Of a DNA stretch of 64,000 nt, positions 52,255 through 61,139 are shown piece by piece (position 1 is the first letter of the stretch; each line of letters begins with the position of its first letter). Origin of the DNA: an uncultured Gemmatimonadales bacterium (GTDB taxonomy: Bacteria > Gemmatimonadota > Gemmatimonadetes > Gemmatimonadales > Gemmatimonadaceae); NCBI GenBank assembly GCA_963793305.1, contig CAWBZV010000005.1, positions 1,556,964 to 1,620,963 on the forward strand, read 5' to 3'. The translations under genes were made by a program, and so were the position numbers. The notes beneath the pieces are model-generated. The model worked only from the letters and a program-made list of their open reading frames with translations, was not told the origin of the DNA and made no database searches.

Positions 52255-53138
52255 CGCTGGCTGACTTGCTCCGCGCGGATCGCGTCGTGGTCCGGCTCCA
52301 AGCGACCACGGTCGAGGATGCCGCGCGCGAGCTGGTCGCCCAGCTCGAAAAGGCAGACGCTATAACCGACGCTGAGAAACTCCGTCAGCGCATCGACGAA
52401 GAGCTCCCGGAAGACATTGTCGCCATGGGCGATCGCGCATTTCTGTTGCACTATCGCACCGATGCCACGTCCCAACTCATCGTCGCCCTAGGCACCGCCG
52501 AAAACGCCATCTGCCGAGAGCTGTCGGATGGCGATCGTCAATGCGCGCGAGTGATGCTGCTGGTGGTCGCACCTCCCCGACTCGCGGCTCGCTACCTGCA
52601 AGTCGTCGGTGCGTTCGCGCGCTTTTTGTCGAGCGCCGAACGGGTAGACGCAGTTCTTTCGCAAGAAACCCCGGAAGCGCTCGTGCGACTCGAAGAGCTC
52701 CGGGAATACGAGCTGCCCGCGCAACTCACGGTGCGCGAGATGATGACCGAACGTCCGCACACCACACGCCCGGACACGCCGGTCAAGGAAGCCGCCCGCG
52801 AGATGGTCCGCTGGCGGGTCAGCGCACTCCCAGTCGTCGAGGTCGACGGCCGTCTCGTCGGCATGCTATCCTCGCGCGACCTGGTGCGCGATCTCCTCGG
52901 CAGCTATCTCCAGGGCGGCCAGGGCGCCGCCGACCGCCCTACGCCGAAACCCCCGCGTCGCACGGTCCGCGACGTGATGACGCGCCAGGTGCTCTGCGTC
53001 TCGCCCGACGAGCCGCTCGCCGAGGTGGCGTCACTGATGACAAACAAGGATGTCGAGCGCGTCCCGGTCGTCCGGGACGGCTTGCTCGTCGGATTTCTCA
53101 CCCGCGGTGACATCGTTCGCAAACTGATAGGATCGTAA
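52251..53138 (+). CDS. PTS EIIA(Ntr/Fru)-like domain fused to a CBS pair
   Basis: N-terminal EIIA-like fold (AFLLH at the usual phospho-His position). Two CBS motifs: VREMMT..ALPVV..GRLVG and VRDVMT..RVPVV..LVG. Confidence 0.78.
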
Positions 53139-53551
53139 TGACCCGAACTCTCGCCATCATCAAGCCGGACGCCTTCGCCACCGGCAAGGCCGGCCTCATT
53201 CTCGCCCACCTGGAAAACGCGGGCTTCCGCGTCCTCGCCACGCGAGTCCTTCGCCTGACCCCAGACCAGGCCGGCACTTTCTACGAGGTCCACCGCGAGC
53301 GCCCGTTCTATTCTTCTCTCGTCGCCTTCATGACGTCGGGCCCGTGCATGCCGATCGCCCTCTCCCGCGACGATGCCGTCTCCACACTTCGCGTCGTCAT
53401 CGGCGCCACCGACCCGGCCCAAGCCGCTCCCGGTACCATCCGGAAGCTTCACGCCGAGTCAAAGGAGCGAAACGCGATCCACGCCTCGGACTCCGACGAC
53501 AATGCGGCTCGCGAGATCGGCTTCTTCTTTTCGGGAGCCGATATAGCATAG
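53138..53551 (+). CDS. ndk: Nucleoside diphosphate kinase
   Basis: TLAIIKPD, FY..H..RPF, GTIR and NAIHASDS motifs. Confidence 0.97.
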   Translation: MTRTLAIIKPDAFATGKAGLILAHLENAGFRVLATRVLRLTPDQAGTFYEVHRERPFYSSLVAFMTSGPCMPIALSRDDAVSTLRVVIGATDPAQAAPGTIRKLHAESKERNAIHASDSDDNAAREIGFFFSGADIA

Positions 53552-53572
53552 GGCTTCGCTCTGGGCGGTCCT

Positions 53573-54058
53573 CTATGGCGGATACTGGGACAGCAGCGTC
53601 TTAAGCGCGCTGTCTGTCCCGGTTAGTGCGCCCCGGAGGATCGGCAGCACCCTGCGCATCCACGCGATCGCCTGTCTACGACCCGCATCGGTGGCCATCG
53701 CCGGGTCATATACGGAACCGCGTCGCAAGGCGCGAACCTCGCTCGAATCCGCCACGAGATCCTCGAGGCCCTCGAGCTCGAGCGCCGCGACGGCCGCAAA
53801 CGCCGCCTCGTGATGGCCTGGACCACTTCCGACTCGCAGCTGGTGTGCGGCCAGCACCGCGAAGGCGCCCGCTAGCGCAGCGTCGTACGCAGCCCGAATC
53901 GCGCCATCGAGACTGATACCGTCGAGCTCCGCGTCTCGTGCGCTGTCGGTTGCCTTGCGCCACAGCTGCACTACAGCCGCCCGATCGAACGGCTCGTCAA
54001 CGATGCGCTTGCCTTGGATGAGCCACGCAAGTCGCTCAGGTCTTTCCCGTCCGCTCAC
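53573..54058 (-). CDS. HEPN-domain protein
   Basis: AIRAAYDAA..HH..RRGSVY pattern; GTGA-coupled to the upstream nucleotidyltransferase. Confidence 0.65.
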   Translation of the reverse strand: MSGRERPERLAWLIQGKRIVDEPFDRAAVVQLWRKATDSARDAELDGISLDGAIRAAYDAALAGAFAVLAAHQLRVGSGPGHHEAAFAAVAALELEGLEDLVADSSEVRALRRGSVYDPAMATDAGRRQAIAWMRRVLPILRGALTGTDSALKTLLSQYPP

Positions 54059-54684
54059 GCCACCCGCTCACGCATCCGTATCCCCGCCGCGGCCGCGATC
54101 GGCGCAGCCGTTTCGATATCACCCGCCACACGGACCATCGCACCCTCCAACACGTTCCGCGGAAACCGCGCCCCGCTAGCTAACCGCTCGCCGAGCGCAT
54201 GGCGCGTATACAACACCGGATTGACCTCGCGCCCCAACACCAACGCCGTCTCGGCGAGTTGATGATGCATGGTCCGCGCGTCTACCGCATCACCGATGAT
54301 CAGCACGTCGACATCACTGTGCTGCCGCGCCGTCCCGGTCGCGAACGAGCCGAACACGCAAGCGAAGTCAATCCCTTCGACGTCCGCCAACGCATCACGC
54401 ACTACGGCGACTGGATCCGAGAGCGCCCCGACGATCGTCCGCAACGCCCCCCACAGGGGAGAGCGCTCGTCCACCGCATAACGCACGAGGCGTCCGTCTG
54501 GCCGACGCGTCAGAGCTCCCATCGCGATAAGCGCCGACAGATCCCGTTGGACCGATGCGCTCGAGACCGCGAGGACGCGCTGAAGCTCCCGCATGTGCGC
54601 GCGCGCCCGAGGCCGGATCACGAAATACCGTACGACGCGCTGCATCGACGCCGGCCAACCCAGTAAGTTTAGGCTCTCTCCCAT
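54055..54684 (-). CDS. Minimal nucleotidyltransferase (MNT) with N-terminal wHTH
   Basis: VFGSFATG....SDVDVLIIG pol-beta motif, LGREVNP, and HTH HMRELQRVL..SSASVQRDL. Confidence 0.85.
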   Translation of the reverse strand: MGESLNLLGWPASMQRVVRYFVIRPRARAHMRELQRVLAVSSASVQRDLSALIAMGALTRRPDGRLVRYAVDERSPLWGALRTIVGALSDPVAVVRDALADVEGIDFACVFGSFATGTARQHSDVDVLIIGDAVDARTMHHQLAETALVLGREVNPVLYTRHALGERLASGARFPRNVLEGAMVRVAGDIETAAPIAAAAGIRMRERVA

Positions 54685-54745
54685 GAGCCAAAACCTAGCT
54701 CACTTTTTCGCTCTTCGCCATAGCGCGCGGCTCTTAATCGTTCAG

Positions 54746-55066
54746 CTAGGCCGGTGCAGTCTTGAGACGAAATCGGACGCCTTCGCGTTTTTGAAGGAAT
54801 GCGACAATGCCGAGCAGGTTAGCGGCCCGCGGATTACCCGCGGGCCCGAGCATGCGCATCAAGCTCTTCGACGGAATGCGCGTCGCTGCCGCTAGATCAG
54901 CAAAGCCGACTGTCGCTTTGATATAATCGCGCAGCACGGTTTTACCGGTATCAACGTCTCCAGCGAGCAGGCACTCAATGCCCTCGCGAAGCAGGGCTCT
55001 ACCAAACGCCGGATCCCGCTGCACGCGAGCGACGATCGTCTCTTTGAAATCGCGAGTTAACGGCAT
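54746..55066 (-). CDS. Addiction-module antitoxin (HigA-like HTH)
   Basis: MPLTRDFKET..LRDYI...GF..LA......KSLMRMLG..GNP; directly downstream of the toxin. Confidence 0.85.
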   Translation of the reverse strand: MPLTRDFKETIVARVQRDPAFGRALLREGIECLLAGDVDTGKTVLRDYIKATVGFADLAAATRIPSKSLMRMLGPAGNPRAANLLGIVAFLQKREGVRFRLKTAPA

Positions 55067-55072
55067 GAGTCC

Positions 55073-55390
55073 TCACTTTCTGCGCTTATAGTCAGCCCAC
55101 CGTTCGTGGGCGGTCTCAATATTCTGTTGCTGGCGTTTCTTGGTTCCACCGCCAAGCAAGATCACGAGCGTATCGCCGTCCTTTCCAAAGTACACGCGAT
55201 AGCCCGGCCCGAAGTCGATCGTGTACTCGAAGACACCGGCTCCGACGCCCTTGACATTCGAGAAATGACCGTGAGATAGCCGCGTGACTGCAATGGCGAC
55301 TTTCGCCGCGGCCTCCGCATTCAGGTCGTCGAACCACCTGGCATACGGACTGTGACTATCACGGTCGATGTATTCGCGAACGGTGATCAT
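55073..55390 (-). CDS. RelE/HigB-family addiction-module toxin
   Basis: SPYARWFDDL, GVGAGVFE, DFGPGYRVYF and LLGGGTK motifs. Confidence 0.9.
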   Translation of the reverse strand: MITVREYIDRDSHSPYARWFDDLNAEAAAKVAIAVTRLSHGHFSNVKGVGAGVFEYTIDFGPGYRVYFGKDGDTLVILLGGGTKKRQQQNIETAHERWADYKRRK

Positions 55391-55394
55391 GTGT

Positions 55395-55423
55395 ATGGTA
55401 ACGCATACGTTACCATGTGTCAA
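55395..55423 (-). promoter_or_regulatory. TA promoter with overlapping palindromic operator
   Basis: TTGACA-17-TACCAT on the minus strand. Perfect palindrome ATGGTAACG-CATA-CGTTACCAT at 55395-55416. Confidence 0.8.
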
Positions 55424-55649
55424 TCAAACGCGTCGAACGGGCCGAATTCTGGCACTCACACCGCGATTGACGACTCGAAACCCGGAAGCTCGCAGCCGAG
55501 AAGGGGCGCTCGATGAAGAGAAAGATCCGTCGAACTGTGTTCGAGCTCGAACGCCCCGGAGCTGGAACGCCGACTTATGTTGGTCGTGACTATTTCGACT
55601 CGCCGCTGATGCACGGTCAGCGCCGCAACGCGCTAGCTACCGCGATTAG

Positions 55650-58158
55650 CTACGTAATGCCAAGTTCTGCTTTCAGGTTGTCCGCTTCCCGAGATTTCCC
55701 CGCGGCCTCGTGTTGGGCGCCCAGCTTGTACAATACTTGGGCAAGCCCTTGCAAGGTCCCAAGGAGCTTCGTGCGATCCGTTGGTGACTCTGACACTACG
55801 CTTCGAAAGAGTTGCTCCGCCTCTTGCAATTGATCTCTTGCCTCGGCGAAGCGTTCCATTTGGGCCGAAATCACGCCACCGACGCGGAGCATCTGCGCGA
55901 GCATGGACCAATGTTCGTCGGCTAAGACGGCGCTGAGGTCTCGTTGTATTAGAATTGCTCTTAGCGCCAAGCGAGAATGCGATTTCAAGTCTCCCACGAC
56001 ACCTCAGCGTGTTCGCCAGCGTAATAAGGGCAATTGCATAGTGCGCTAGATACCTGTGGGGTTGGGCAAGGCACAGTCGTGTGAGAATTCTGACCGCTTC
56101 CATCGCCGCGTGAGATGCCTCACGTGGCTTCAGGTCGACGCAACGATTCGCCGAGTTGCTGAGAGTCAACGCGAACTTCCCTCGAAGCACGATCTCGTTC
56201 GGGTGAGCTGCAACGGCCCGTCGGTGTCGCATTACGGCTTCGCGCGCAACCTCGCTTGCGTTAGCTCCACGGCCCGTACGGTCAAGTGCGATGGCGAGGT
56301 TGTTCAACGCCCAGGCGATCTCTCGGTCAAAGACCTCCGGCTGCTGTTCCGCAAGCGCGCGGTATGCCAGGACGCTCTTTTGCGACGCCTGCAACGCTTG
56401 ATCTGGCTTGTTCAACTCCAGGTACCTCGTCACCAACGTATTGCGCGCTAGTGCCAATGCTCGCGCGTCGCCCTCGGCCGAGAGACGCTCAACGAGTTCC
56501 TCCTGAAATATCAATGCGCGCGCTTGCAGCACGACGCTCCGCTCGGGTAGCACTGCCGCAATAGAGGTCATCACTGATAGATCGACAGTCGGCGCTAGAA
56601 CATCGTCGAGCCAGGCGATGGCGCCCGAAACATTTGCGTCCTCCGCGAAGTCTTGCACAGCGTGAATCACAAATTCGGCGACTGCGATCGGGCTCCTGCT
56701 GAACGCACGCTGGATTGTTCCGTGTTGTTTCTCGAGTGGTCGGCGTGGAGCTCCGATTTCTGTCAGGGCGAAGGCCTCGCCTATAAGGTCAGGTCGGATC
56801 GGCGTCAGGTTGTCGCCTTGTTCAGCGGCAAGCGCGTCCGCGAGCAGAGAGGCAATCGTTTCAGCGGGGACAGATAGGCTATAGCCTGCTTCTCGACTCT
56901 CCTGCTCCACCAACGCAGTGGAGTCGGCTTGACCGCTACCGGCCTGAAGCGTCACGCATGCCGCCAGATACGTGAACAGCCTCGGATCGATGTGCGAAGC
57001 GGAAGCGAGGCGCTGCAGTCGTTCGCGCTCAGACTCGGCGACGCGCTTGGCCAGATCTGGCCGACTCAGTGCCAGTGCCGTGGGTGCATCACCCGAGGAG
57101 GCGACGACTCCCGCCATAATCAGGAACAGAGGGTCGCCTGTGTTGGGCCCGATGGTAAGACGGTTGTCGAAGTCTGGCCTAAGTCCCGGCGCCGGAAGGC
57201 TCGGTACGGTCGAGGCGCCGTTGATGCGTGCAGCCGCTTGCATTGCAGCTAACAGGAGCGCTCGTCGGTCAGCAACGGATCCGAGCGGGCGAAGCGGAAC
57301 TGGTGCTTCAGGATCGAGCAGCGAATCGATGGATGCGCTCGCGAGCGTTCCCGGCCGGGTAAGATCGAACCACCAACCGCCATTGTCGTCGGCGAACCGT
57401 TCCAGCAACAGCACGCGGAGTCGATAGGTGGTAGTCAACGTGGCGAGCTTGCCAAGCCAAACGCGAAGCGACGTAGCTGCGGACGCCGCATCGTCAATCA
57501 CGACCAGGGTCGGTCGCTCGGAACCCCTCCAGGCATCCCCATCGTAGTCGGTGCCCATTCGTGCGAGGGCATCGTGTGACAAAACACCTGCTCGCCAACC
57601 TTGCGACTCAGCGCGTTCACACAGATCGATGGCCAATCGTGTCTTGCCCGCTCCTCCTCGCCCGATCAGACAGCGGACGGCCACCATGCGCTCCGAGGTG
57701 AGCCACTCGCCCAGCGACTTGAGCTCATCACTCCGTCCCACGAGAGCCATTGCTCGTACGTCGGTTTGTAACACATCGAGCTCTTTCGTGGGCGCACGCC
57801 GACGATGATGCCAGGGGTCCAAGTTGATCTGAGACGCACGAACGTGAGAGGCAATCACGCTCAGTTGCTCAACGGACTGCTCCACCTGGCCGACACGGTT
57901 CTCCACCTTCCCGAGACGTTTCTCGAAGTCCGCGACGATACTGTGAACGCGAGCGATCTGCTCCCGTTCGAGAGCCGTCGGTGTAGACGCGAACAATGCG
58001 ATCAGGTCGGCGTGCGCAAGTCGCTTGAGACCGGGCATTGTCAGACGCGTCAGGACGGCAACGATGAGCCGATCGAACATCACTCGCGCCATGCCTGGGT
58101 CGAGCGACAAAGGCGCCGCGGTCAGCGCAGCGATTATCGTTTCACGGCGATCGCTCAT
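55650..58158 (-). CDS. Coiled coil + STAND P-loop NTPase + TPR sensor protein (apparent frameshift near 55971)
   Basis: Walker A GRGGAGKT, Walker B LVVIDD, RVLLLER and GDPL (GxP). TPRs such as WALNNLAIAL..G; the last TPRs continue in the 55650-55997 frame. Confidence 0.8.
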
Positions 58159-58754
58159 CGGGGAGCGCCAACGGCCCATTCAAACTTCGCGATCACGTCG
58201 ATCAAGTCCGCGTCGGTTGACGTGGCAAGCCAGCTCTGAAACCGCTGCCAGTCTTTGGCATTAACGCCATCCGGACATTTGTCGTGCGTCAGCAGGACCC
58301 GAATGCCCCCGAGGTATTCTGAGTTGATGTTCCCGGCGAGGACTTCGTCTCGAGTTGTTGTCCAGGCTTCGATGCCCGTGACTCCGTCTGCCAGTGGGGA
58401 GTGGCTCTCACGGGTCGGCGTGGCAGTCGTCGTGAACAGAAACTGAATCCGCAACTCCGGATTCAATGCCCGGTGCGCGACGAAGTGGGCGACCGCTGCG
58501 CGAGCACCCGGCGAACGGAGTGTGATGGAGCCACTGAGAGCTTTGACCTGCTCGACCGTTCGACCCAGAGTAACCTGTGACACTAAGTCAACATCCTCGC
58601 CACGCTCGAGCTCGAGGATCTCATCACTGCCTAGGGCGAGCCATCGGTCCAGCGTGACATGGATCTGATAGAAATAACCGCGGATGGTATCGCTTGCGTC
58701 GCGGCCCGCTTGTGCAACAAATTCTTTGAGCTGCTCGATCGGCGCAGTCGGCAA
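58155..58754 (-). CDS. Cap4-like PD-(D/E)xK nuclease domain protein
   Basis: RDASDTIRGYFYQ..ERGEDVD..EQVK. TTG start 8 nt after GAGGAG. Confidence 0.72.
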   Translation of the reverse strand: MPTAPIEQLKEFVAQAGRDASDTIRGYFYQIHVTLDRWLALGSDEILELERGEDVDLVSQVTLGRTVEQVKALSGSITLRSPGARAAVAHFVAHRALNPELRIQFLFTTTATPTRESHSPLADGVTGIEAWTTTRDEVLAGNINSEYLGGIRVLLTHDKCPDGVNAKDWQRFQSWLATSTDADLIDVIAKFEWAVGAPR

Positions 58755-58992
58755 CGCGATTACTCCTCGGAGTTCATGCCGTTTGGGTGATTCTCGGCGA
58801 CGCCACCATTCGCGCTTAGCGACTGTCGCGCGCTGGTACAGTCCGCACAAGGGCGCTTTTCAGACAGCAACAGGCAGGTTCGTGACACGACCCCTCGTCC
58901 GTTCACATTGCGGCTTGCGGGCGTGCATGCTCCGCACCGCGCCGGTGAGCTTGTCGCGATCAGCCACGCCGCCCGATGTCGCGACCACTCGA

Positions 58993-59316
58993 GTGTCAGT
59001 CGACACCTCGCACCTCAGGACCATGTGTAAATTATCCGCCAATGGACTGGGGTTCGGTGTTCCGATGGGTTCCCGCCGCAATTCTTGTGGCCATGGGGAT
59101 GCTGGGCATTGTTCGGCGCCAGATACGGCTGGTCTATCGCTCGGGATTCGGTCGAGGGGAATCACGATACCTGCGCGGCAAGGAAGCCGTTTTCTTCGGT
59201 GTCTATCTCGTTGCCGCGGGAATCCTGCTTGCAGCCTGGTCGCACTGGCGGCAATCGGCACCAGGCCATAGACCGCTCACTTCGCGGTCGACTCCATTGG
59301 AGGTGTCGACCGACAC
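58993..59316. repeat. 17-bp inverted repeat pair
   Basis: GTGTCAGTCGACACCTC (58993-59009) and GAGGTGTCGACCGACAC (59300-59316), 16/17 complementary. Confidence 0.75.
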
Positions 59317-59341
59317 GATGAGATCGACCGACACCACCTGA
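59042..59341 (+). CDS. Small two-TM hypothetical membrane protein
   Basis: MDWGSVFRWVPAAILVAMGMLGI...FFGVYLVAAGILLAAW; TAAATT 8 nt upstream. Confidence 0.55.
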   Translation: MDWGSVFRWVPAAILVAMGMLGIVRRQIRLVYRSGFGRGESRYLRGKEAVFFGVYLVAAGILLAAWSHWRQSAPGHRPLTSRSTPLEVSTDTMRSTDTT

Positions 59342-59445
59342 AACTCCGTCCGAGCTCTCGGAGACTCACTCCGGCGCACCCTCGGCGAGTCTGGCGGGAC
59401 GAAGCCGCTACCCTAAGCCTGCCTGGCCGCGTATCTTACCGTGCT

Positions 59446-59961
59446 ATGTTGGTGTTCGACCTCCGCTCGCTCTCGTCGGCTGCCGCGACTGTTGATGGTG
59501 TGTTAGAGTCCGGCGACCCGGTGTGGCAGGAGCAGGATACGGTACCGGTCGCAGGTGTCCGGGTCACTGGGCGGCTCTCGCAGGCCGGCCCAGCCCGGTA
59601 TTATTTCAGTGGCCGGATAGCTGGGGCGGTTCATGGTGAATGTCGGAAGTGCTTGACCGACGTTGACGTGGATGTTGCGGAGCCGGCGCATTTCGTGTTC
59701 GTAGAGGACGGCGCCGACGATCTCGAAGATCCTGATGTGTTCGTGTTCGACCCGCGGGAGAATGGCCTCGATCTGAGGCCGGCCATCCGCGAACAGTGGC
59801 TCCTGGCCGCGCCGGCGTATGTCCAGTGTCGTGAGGACTGCCGCGGCCTGTGTCCCACATGCGGGGCTGACTTGAACGCCGGCGCGTGTTCGTGCGAGCC
59901 GGCAACCGATAGTAGGTGGGCGGCGCTCAAAGCTGCCCGCGACCACTCCGACCATCACTAG
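59446..59961 (+). CDS. yceD: DUF177/YceD family protein
   Basis: CRKCL, CREDCRGLCPTCG.DLN...C.C and DSRWAAL motifs; upstream of rpmF. Confidence 0.92.
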   Translation: MLVFDLRSLSSAAATVDGVLESGDPVWQEQDTVPVAGVRVTGRLSQAGPARYYFSGRIAGAVHGECRKCLTDVDVDVAEPAHFVFVEDGADDLEDPDVFVFDPRENGLDLRPAIREQWLLAAPAYVQCREDCRGLCPTCGADLNAGACSCEPATDSRWAALKAARDHSDHH

Positions 59962-59963
59962 CA

Positions 59964-60146
59964 ATGGCCGTTCCGAAGAGAAGGACCTCGAAGCGAAAGA
60001 AGCGCGCACGGAATACGCACAAGACGGCGCCGGCGATCGTGCTGCAGGCGTGTCCGCGCTGCAACAGCATGAAGCGACCGCACCATGTCTGTGAGGAGTG
60101 TGGGTACTACGGCGGTGAGCAGCGGGTCGTCGCCAAAGAGGCTTAA
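59964..60146 (+). CDS. rpmF: 50S ribosomal protein L32
   Basis: MAVPKRRTSK, CPRC and HHVCEECGYY motifs. Confidence 0.96.
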   Translation: MAVPKRRTSKRKKRARNTHKTAPAIVLQACPRCNSMKRPHHVCEECGYYGGEQRVVAKEA

Positions 60147-60149
60147 GCC

Positions 60150-61139
60150 TTGGCGCGCATCGCGTTGGATGCGATGGGGGGTGACCACGCTCCCCGCGCC
60201 GCGATTGCCGGCGCGCTGCTCGCCCTCGCGGAGCTGCCGGCGGCGCACACGATCCAACTCGTTGGACAGCCAGCCGTCATCGAGGCCGAGCTCGATCTCC
60301 TGAAGGCTGACCGCTCGCGTTTGGAGATTGTTCCGGCTGCGGACGTGATCGCGATGACGGACAAGCCGAGCGTTGCCTTGCGCAGCAAGGCGAGCTCGAT
60401 GGTCGTGGGTCTCGAGCTGCAACCACGCGGTCTCTCGGATGCGTTCGTCTCCGCCGGCAACACCGGCGCGCAGATGGCCGCATCCATGCGCATTCTCAAG
60501 CTGATGCCGGGGCTCGAGCGGCCCGCGATCGGCACCGTGTTTCCCACGGCGCTCAAGCCCGTGCTCGTGCTGGACAGCGGCGCCAACGTCGACTGCTCGG
60601 CCGAGGAGCTCGTGCAGTTCGCCCGGCTCGGTTCGGTGTACTGCGAGGACCTGCTCGGCCGGTCCAACCCCGCGATCGGGTTGCTCAGCGTCGGCGAGGA
60701 AGACGAGAAAGGCAACGCCGTCGTGAAAGAGGCCAATGCGCTGCTCCGGGCGTCCGGTCTCAATTTTCAGGGGAATGTCGAAGGCCGAGATATCCCGCAA
60801 GGCCAGAGCGATCGAGGGCCGATCGACGTCGTCGTCTGCGATGGGTTCGTCGGGAACGTGCTCCTCAAGTTCTATGAAGCCATAGCGCCCGTGGTGACGC
60901 GCTGGATCGGCGAGGGGCTCAAGATGGACCCCAAGCAGCTGCAGCGGAGCCTCGCGCAACTCGACTACTCCGAGCACGGCGGCGCGCCGCTGCTCGGCGT
61001 TCAAGGAGTGAGCATCATCTCGCACGGCAAGTCGAACGACCGCGCGATCAAGAACGCGATTCGCGTGGCGTTGCGTGCGGTCGAGAGCCACATGACCGAG
61101 CACGCCAGCCGGCGCCTCTCCCAGTCGGCCACGGCGTGA
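60150..61139 (+). CDS. plsX: Phosphate acyltransferase PlsX
   Basis: IALDAMGGDHAP, SAGNTGA, GANVD, DGFVGN and GGAPLLG motifs. Confidence 0.96.
   Translation: MARIALDAMGGDHAPRAAIAGALLALAELPAAHTIQLVGQPAVIEAELDLLKADRSRLEIVPAADVIAMTDKPSVALRSKASSMVVGLELQPRGLSDAFVSAGNTGAQMAASMRILKLMPGLERPAIGTVFPTALKPVLVLDSGANVDCSAEELVQFARLGSVYCEDLLGRSNPAIGLLSVGEEDEKGNAVVKEANALLRASGLNFQGNVEGRDIPQGQSDRGPIDVVVCDGFVGNVLLKFYEAIAPVVTRWIGEGLKMDPKQLQRSLAQLDYSEHGGAPLLGVQGVSIISHGKSNDRAIKNAIRVALRAVESHMTEHASRRLSQSATA

Follow-up and report, generated by a model that had tools for sequence, protein, structure and literature searches.

The window considered here, 64,000 nucleotides of an uncultured Gemmatimonadales bacterium (assembly GCA_963793305.1, contig CAWBZV010000005.1, positions 1,556,964 to 1,620,963 of the forward strand), contains on its minus strand a gene whose product combines a predicted nuclease, a coiled coil, a STAND NTPase and a TPR receptor. 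It is probably a single gene, a chimera of a predicted Cap4-type nuclease and its coiled coil with the STAND-TPR receptor of a clade that likely signals through amyloid-like motifs, and would act as a one-protein abortive-infection switch. In this assembly the gene lies in three pieces, 58158-58754 (199 residues), 55978-58158 and 55650-55976, which together span 3105 nucleotides and are separated by single-base breaks at 58158 and 55976. The start is a TTG at 58754, the stop a TAG at 55652-55650, and the joined frame has 1034 residues, with the following parts.

55650..58754, minus strand: the whole gene, 1034 residues in a single frame (nuclease, coiled coil, STAND NTPase, helical domains, TPRs)
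58763..58768, minus strand: Shine-Dalgarno-like GAGGAG, 8 nucleotides before the TTG at 58754, read from the sequence
58006..58715, minus strand: predicted Cap4/DUF4297-type nuclease module, residues ~14-250, with EQVK at 58542-58553
57841..57993, minus strand: heptad coiled-coil linker, residues ~255-305, read from the heptad pattern and common to a family of ~1430-residue proteins
57130..57800, minus strand: STAND NTPase, with Walker A at 57640-57663, Walker B at 57490-57507, the LLLER arginine at 57399 and a GDP motif at 57130-57138
56461..57129, minus strand: helical and winged-helix-like region, its domains named from STAND anatomy, with the clade motif IRPDLIGEAF (RPD at 56788-56796)
55650..56460, minus strand: six 46-residue kinesin-light-chain-type TPRs, strongly diverged from the clade consensus, the predicted sensor

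The three pieces are one gene. Four runs were aligned on window positions 52800-60200, and X1, which covers all 30 bins, carries an additional base at 58158 and lacks one at 55976 relative to the window; over these 7.4 kb it has no other indel, and 13 substitutions. As the only two indels are the two frame changes, the pieces belong to a single frame. A relative, P0002, is an unbroken protein of 1034 residues, 83% identical to the window protein, collinear with all three pieces and beginning at the same residue. A single gene of about this length had been proposed in the original prediction, and each of the motifs quoted there is found in its place. The proposal that the gene would need repair falls away, since the breaks most likely arose in assembly and a natural intact allele exists in the X1 form and in P0002.

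Other genes of the window carry similar single-base frameshifts, namely a DnaB-like helicase gene (6048), a dcd-like gene (26049), an unnamed gene of ~800 codons (42357/42783) and fabG (63498/63651), the DnaB-like and fabG names being given from sequence. Of the long open reading frames (ORFs) of the relative G001, 51 have a match of at least 75% in the window, and for five of these, from four distinct genes, the window copy is broken into more than one frame; neither fabG indel is present in C8 and C22, two further contigs of the assembly, or in G001. The contig thus carries indel errors, and other findings of broken genes from it need caution. Moreover, C8 and C22 duplicate parts of C5 at 97.5-99.5% identity, which indicates that the assembly mixes strains (contamination 5%). 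Identity to P0002 is 106 of 112 in the nuclease core (residues 14-125), 155 of 181 in the NTPase and 96 of 133 in the last three TPRs, and all 24 motif residues compared are unchanged. To judge from these figures the gene is apparently under purifying selection with its motifs intact; the breaks are very probably assembly errors, and the gene is most likely intact in the source strain.

Two other accounts of the breaks bear on this. A genuine pseudogene, in which two indels disabled a costly defence gene of this strain while close strains keep an intact copy, is rather unlikely. This would fit the fact that both X1 indels over 7.4 kb fall in this gene, X1 differing at 13 other places, and that the island turns over, as the assembly's own C8 with neither the gene nor the toxin testifies; however, the like single-base breaks in the DnaB-like and fabG genes of the same contig, the unchanged catalytic motifs and a core conserved at 95% speak for errors of assembly. 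Barely credible is a pair of coupled genes, nuclease and receptor, despite the ATGA present in the window, where the first break creates a TGA overlapping an ATG by four bases, and despite the frequency of such overlaps in Bell/NLR pairs, for the break falls inside the nuclease module, which runs to residue ~250 in all homologues, and both X1 and P0002 carry the fused gene. That reading was rejected, the open frame of X1 contradicting separate genes.

The N-terminus is a predicted Cap4-type DNA nuclease. It matches LmuA of PADLOC (4e-11) and DUF4297 (2e-6), with a profile it matched the DUF4297 chain 8XAV of the PDB (9e-5), and in the ESM Atlas Cap4_nuclease clusters were found at 0.90 with 177 shared features; these matches bear out the nuclease-STAND-TPR anatomy originally proposed. 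E68, Q69 and K71 are conserved without exception in the 11 homologues aligned. When residues 1-310 were compared with proteins of 568-1810 residues, the 12 matches were P0001, P0002 and ten proteins of 1368-1621 residues, and a profile search added four more nuclease-module proteins of 1325-1419 residues. Residues 9-311 align to the ten at 29-38% identity, the match being strong only to about residue 300, and a hidden Markov model (HMM) of the clade NTPase matched none of the 14 larger nuclease-module proteins (hhalign probability 2.3%). The larger proteins represent an unnamed nuclease-STAND-TPR family of ~1430 residues (P0025-P0032, P0034 and P0177-P0179; L145:6001-10146; L147; also in G399), for which the PADLOC Avs models gave no match. 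The nuclease module is also present on the Deinococcus plasmid NZ_CP026517.1, beside HEPN and DUF4238 genes and transposases in what looks like a defence island, and, with a GASH gene close by, on a Rhizobium plasmid.

From about residue 300 the relationships are of another kind. Residues ~300-1030 align at 35-40% identity to a STAND-TPR clade of 6996 representatives at E<=0.001, or 685 at E<=1e-30, whose HMM, trained on 40 rows that include P0002, matches this protein at 5e-87. The match of the NTPase to Pfam nSTAND_NTPase5 is weak (22 bits, cut-off 34); K371 and D421 are invariant in 111 alignment rows. Kinesin-light-chain and other TPR chains are among the PDB matches to the clade profile, and no Avs chain is among the best 60 of the 72. 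In the receptor, Pfam recognizes TPR_10/TPR_12. The count of roughly six TPRs in the original prediction holds to the extent that six repeats of 46 residues are visible by eye, but an HMM of the repeat made from relatives detects four. The repeats are far from the clade consensus: their mean TPR score is 17 bits, while the median for 142 relatives is 50 and just one of these scores lower. The amyloid members may in consequence respond to another trigger than this protein. The window protein and P0002 form a pair nested among motif-bearing rows, on a long stem (0.83-0.85), in the two quick trees on which the account of the clade draws.

The clade had been thought to be joined mostly to proteases or other effectors. 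This is not so, as 126 of 165 proteins with this NTPase have no more than 80 residues before it, most of them with an amyloid-like motif, and fusions are the minority. In a scan of 28 long clade proteins the fused domains found were TIR/SEFIR, SIR2, CHAT, DUF4062 and NNH3, each borne by part of this minority; weak HNH- and Mrr-like domains occur in other members. Some distant clade relatives (L022-L025, L029; L026) have what we take to be a glycosyltransferase-like N-terminus, or a trypsin-like domain with a presumed Trypco2-like gene upstream.

The short receptor N-termini have in common a pseudo-repeat rich in Q, N, G, V and I. In L013, L014 and L015 an adjacent gene of 126-138 residues ends in a matching motif, the two L013 genes overlapping by four bases (motif and Bell-like gene are together at L013:4941-7822, L014:4911-8230 and L015:4980-6788, and the clade layout is seen at 37 more loci). 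An initial regular expression for the motif found it in 74 of 118 receptors and 26 of 5900 controls, missed many variants and was replaced by an HMM. The HMM made from the C-terminal tails of the Bell-like proteins alone gives at least 10 bits in 101 of 158 receptor N-termini and in none of 158 control segments; on the nuclease-bearing pair it yields -2.2 bits (P0001) and -3.8 bits (P0002). By an HMM of the globular part, a Bell-like ORF occurs in 40 of the 91 related loci; many of the loci are truncated, and the count omits L025-L055, 31 weaker matches. Where there is room on both sides, which is so in 31 loci, 15 have motif and partner, 12 neither, and four are discordant, kin and duplicates among them being non-independent; a Fisher p of 5e-5 overstates the association, due to duplicate loci (e.g. 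L082/L083, L090/L095, L134/L136) and to the tail HMM having been built from the same loci. Hosts of paired loci are Alphaproteobacteria, Phycisphaerales, Thermoanaerobaculia, Planctomycetaceae and Acidobacteriaceae, with others in metagenomes. The usual members of the clade thus likely signal via the amyloid-like motif to a separate Bell-like killer protein, and the motif-bearing clade may be a BASS family missed by screens based on NB-ARC and NACHT. In P0003 the receptor has a Bell-like domain as its own C-terminal part, and in P0109 such a domain apparently forms the N-terminus.

On sequence comparison, then, the window protein is a chimera whose residues 1-300 match the ~1430-residue STAND family and whose residues 300-1034 belong to the STAND-TPR clade. 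The junction follows the coiled coil, at about residue 300-310, and the end of the coiled coil coincides exactly with that of the motif in relatives. The nuclease-receptor pairing is seen only in the window, together with X1, and in P0002, within the searches made: the same nuclease type was not found in the 91 related loci or in other clade proteins. A search of the assembly itself (G000), which is 92% complete, gave no Bell-like gene at E<0.01. Recombination just before the NTPase may have swapped an amyloid-like N-terminus for a nuclease module such as that of the ~1430-residue STAND family, after which the partner gene would not be needed and the repeats could have drifted.

The protein likely works in the manner of Avs3 and Avs7, by sensing, oligomerising and cutting DNA. 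By analogy with these two, at rest the TPRs and a closed NTPase would hold the nuclease apart until the TPRs are bound by a phage protein produced in the course of infection. Replacement of ADP by ATP would then allow the NTPases to oligomerise and the coiled coils to bring the nuclease domains together, and the clustered nucleases would cut double-stranded DNA without sequence preference, stopping both cell and phage. A phage protein is most likely the trigger, given that all characterised Avs triggers covered by PMC13581612 are phage proteins and that Bab/Agp, according to 10.1101/2024.11.07.622273 the only amyloid/Bell-type pair tested, is antiphage. Where tested, Cap4-type nucleases carried by STAND proteins serve as effectors against phage, and QxK/ExK mutants abolish killing in many Avs families (PMC13581612).

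Resemblance to Avs proteins in general is in the joining of effector, STAND NTPase and repeat sensor in one chain, and in intact nuclease residues (acidic core, QxK) and Walker A and B motifs. With the Cap4-nuclease Avs proteins SeAvs3 and SeAvs7, as presented in PMC13581612, there are in common the nuclease-STAND-TPR order, a QxK near residue 70, Walker A and B, the sensor arginine and the predicted activation by oligomerisation; unlike them, the window protein has only six 46-residue kinesin-light-chain-type TPRs as its sensor and a coiled coil between nuclease and NTPase. Neither P0002 nor any of the 40 clade members compared was matched by an Avs model of PADLOC (Avs1b and Avs2 models were seen in PADLOC-DB 2.0 and other Avs types are assumed present), and a PDB search with P0002 gave no solved structure at E<=1. 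To the extent that such models can tell, the protein is not a member of the Avs types in PADLOC, a comparison that does not extend to Avs6-24. Membership of Avs5, defined in PMC12931631 by a Sir2 effector and nSTAND3, was rejected, P0002 having neither Sir2 nor nSTAND3 (PF20720). bNACHT was likewise rejected, with no PF05729 match for P0002 at E<=0.05, and P0002 matched neither NB-ARC nor NACHT.

The homology to DUF4297 of DUF4297-HerA (8XAV) and to Lamassu LmuA concerns an N-terminal nuclease segment, the first 60-240 residues only. Unlike in those systems, the nuclease is fused to a receptor, and the island has neither a HerA nor an SMC partner gene; with a partial match only, and island genes that are toxin-antitoxin (TA) pairs, membership of either system was rejected. 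With the ~1430-residue family the nuclease and coiled-coil module is common, at 29-38% identity, whereas the NTPase clade and sensor are unrelated. In BASS/Bell pairs, as outlined in 10.1101/2020.01.06.895854 and, for Bab/Agp, in 10.1101/2024.11.07.622273, the NLR layout involves motifs of ~25 residues rich in Q, N, G, V and I, overlapping genes and all-in-one variants. Relatives of the window protein have such a motif at the receptor N-terminus and again at the end of an adjacent helical protein of 125-140 residues. The window protein itself lacks both motif and partner and has a nuclease in their place, yet its NTPase does belong to the motif-bearing clade; judged by sequence, it probably descends from the clade of likely amyloid-signalling pairs and is not itself such a pair. 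The paired loci here lie outside the filamentous phyla that dominated the screen of 10.1101/2020.01.06.895854.

Neither Cap4-STAND-TPR proteins nor all-in-one NLRs are new as designs. According to PMC13581612, STAND families reported in 2026 often have effectors of Cap4 type, which makes the architecture less surprising than the original prediction implied, and all-in-one BASS forms with TIR or CHAT are already described in 10.1101/2020.01.06.895854, from whose main text the word 'nuclease' is absent. The literature searched, which lacked most subscription papers, gave no instance of a Cap4 nuclease joined to a BASS-type receptor. Of the claim of an undescribed Avs type, what holds is that no PADLOC Avs model matched; the design is common and Avs6-24 lie outside the comparison. 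Tentatively, and short of an even chance, the protein may represent an undescribed Avs-like type that arose by grafting of a Cap4 nuclease onto an unrecognised amyloid-signalling NLR clade, one with an NTPase that is neither NB-ARC nor NACHT, with its own BASS-like motif and widespread in non-filamentous bacteria of soil and water.

Alternatively, the protein could simply belong to one of the families Avs6-24, or to one of the 90 sensor clusters that were catalogued in 2026, its Cap4 effector being a frequent one. The survey in PMC13581612 covered 359,879 representatives with Cap4 as a seed, and the present clade is large, with its 685 representatives; against this, the PADLOC Avs models and the PDB searches already mentioned returned nothing of the kind, and the main text of PMC13581612 never mentions amyloid; this assignment is quite improbable. 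A receptor for death signalling in response to a cue other than phage (another mobile element, a competitor's effector or non-self contact), in the manner of fungal amyloid-signalling NLRs, is unlikely, even if the clade has the Bell/NLR layout whose sensing and function, for bacterial amyloid pairs, are stated as open in 10.1101/2024.11.07.622273, and even if relatives seldom adjoin defence genes. The antiphage activity of tested Cap4-STAND proteins and of Bab/Agp points the other way, as does the presence of the gene beside two TA pairs, one of them a PADLOC defence candidate.

Several considerations weigh against the nuclease-receptor chimera as an antiphage switch, or against parts of that account. 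As X1 may come from the source sample itself or from a strain very near to it, it is not independent of the window, and a true recent inactivation in the source strain keeps a small probability. The matches to nuclease families are partial and below curated cut-offs (NF042945, 24.6 of 300 bits). The clade is described from the best 150 of its 6996 representatives, and the sister of the nuclease-bearing pair differs between the two quick trees, which leaves prevalence as the guide to the direction of the swap. The Bell-like proteins were named by none of the Pfam, NCBIfam and PADLOC models, and the designation reflects size, a hydrophobic first helix, the common motif and gene adjacency. PADLOC matches at 1e-8 among neighbours of relatives amount to 8 of 136 ORFs (21 loci), several being generic enzymes; with neighbours mostly of non-defence type, the genomic context lends no support to a role of the clade in phage defence.

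If the chimeric, nuclease-armed reading is true, amyloid relay and direct clustering of nucleases would be interchangeable outputs of one receptor scaffold, and the protein would offer a simple kill read-out for finding what the receptor family senses. As a natural clade member it would suit the phage-gene toxicity screens already used for Avs families. Two uncharacterised groups are exposed as well, the motif-bearing clade (685 representatives, E<1e-30) and the ~1430-residue nuclease-STAND family.

The gene is part of a strain-variable accessory island, the flanking ndk-like and yceD-like genes having been recognised from sequence.

53530..59403, no strand: accessory island of ~5.9 kb, between the ndk-like (53138-53551) and yceD-like (59446-59961) genes
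55073..55390, minus strand: RelE/ParE-type toxin (HI1419-like), TIGR02683 at 95.7 bits, cut-off 62.85
54746..55066, minus strand: probable cognate antitoxin by position and likeness, without family match
54055..54684, minus strand: HTH-nucleotidyltransferase (MNT-like), PADLOC PDC-M05A at 5e-40
53573..54058, minus strand: partner, PADLOC PDC-M05B at 3e-16, which we take to be HEPN-like from the MNT-HEPN pairing

The two adjacent TA pairs noted at the outset are therefore there, the RelE/ParE-type toxin through TIGR02683 with its partner, the MNT/HEPN-like pair through PADLOC PDC-M05A/B. G+C content is 0.60 in the STAND gene and 0.66-0.67 in the flanks. The island site is empty in G001, G002, G003 and G005, the STAND gene was matched in none of 20 relatives (a tally that includes the unpublished genome G012), and C8 has a second allele of the island in which the MNT/HEPN-like pair is kept and the toxin and STAND gene are absent. 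A search of 301 genomes of the order with P0002 matched two, the assembly itself and G219, the latter by its TPRs only, and in 401 genomes of the phylum the nuclease piece matched four, the assembly included. No relatives were found in the viral contigs and phage records searched, nor did a metagenome scan with P0002 alone give a match. Rfam families and tRNAs were sought in the window and none found, a promoter and terminator scan of it stayed at chance level, and most of its short repeats look like chance.

Some minor features of the island may be added. One X2 contig joins the ndk-like gene straight to the antitoxin (window 53529-54746), without the MNT/HEPN-like pair, and so has a third form of the island. 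An imperfect 20-bp direct repeat with a 9-bp core, at 55412-55431 and 59020-59039, flanks the STAND gene, and since G000:C8 14253-14312 has one copy where the gene is missing, the repeat may mark a site of insertion or excision. At the right end of the island is a short hydrophobic ORF (58976-59341, plus strand), of which C8 has a diverged version and G001 a remnant.

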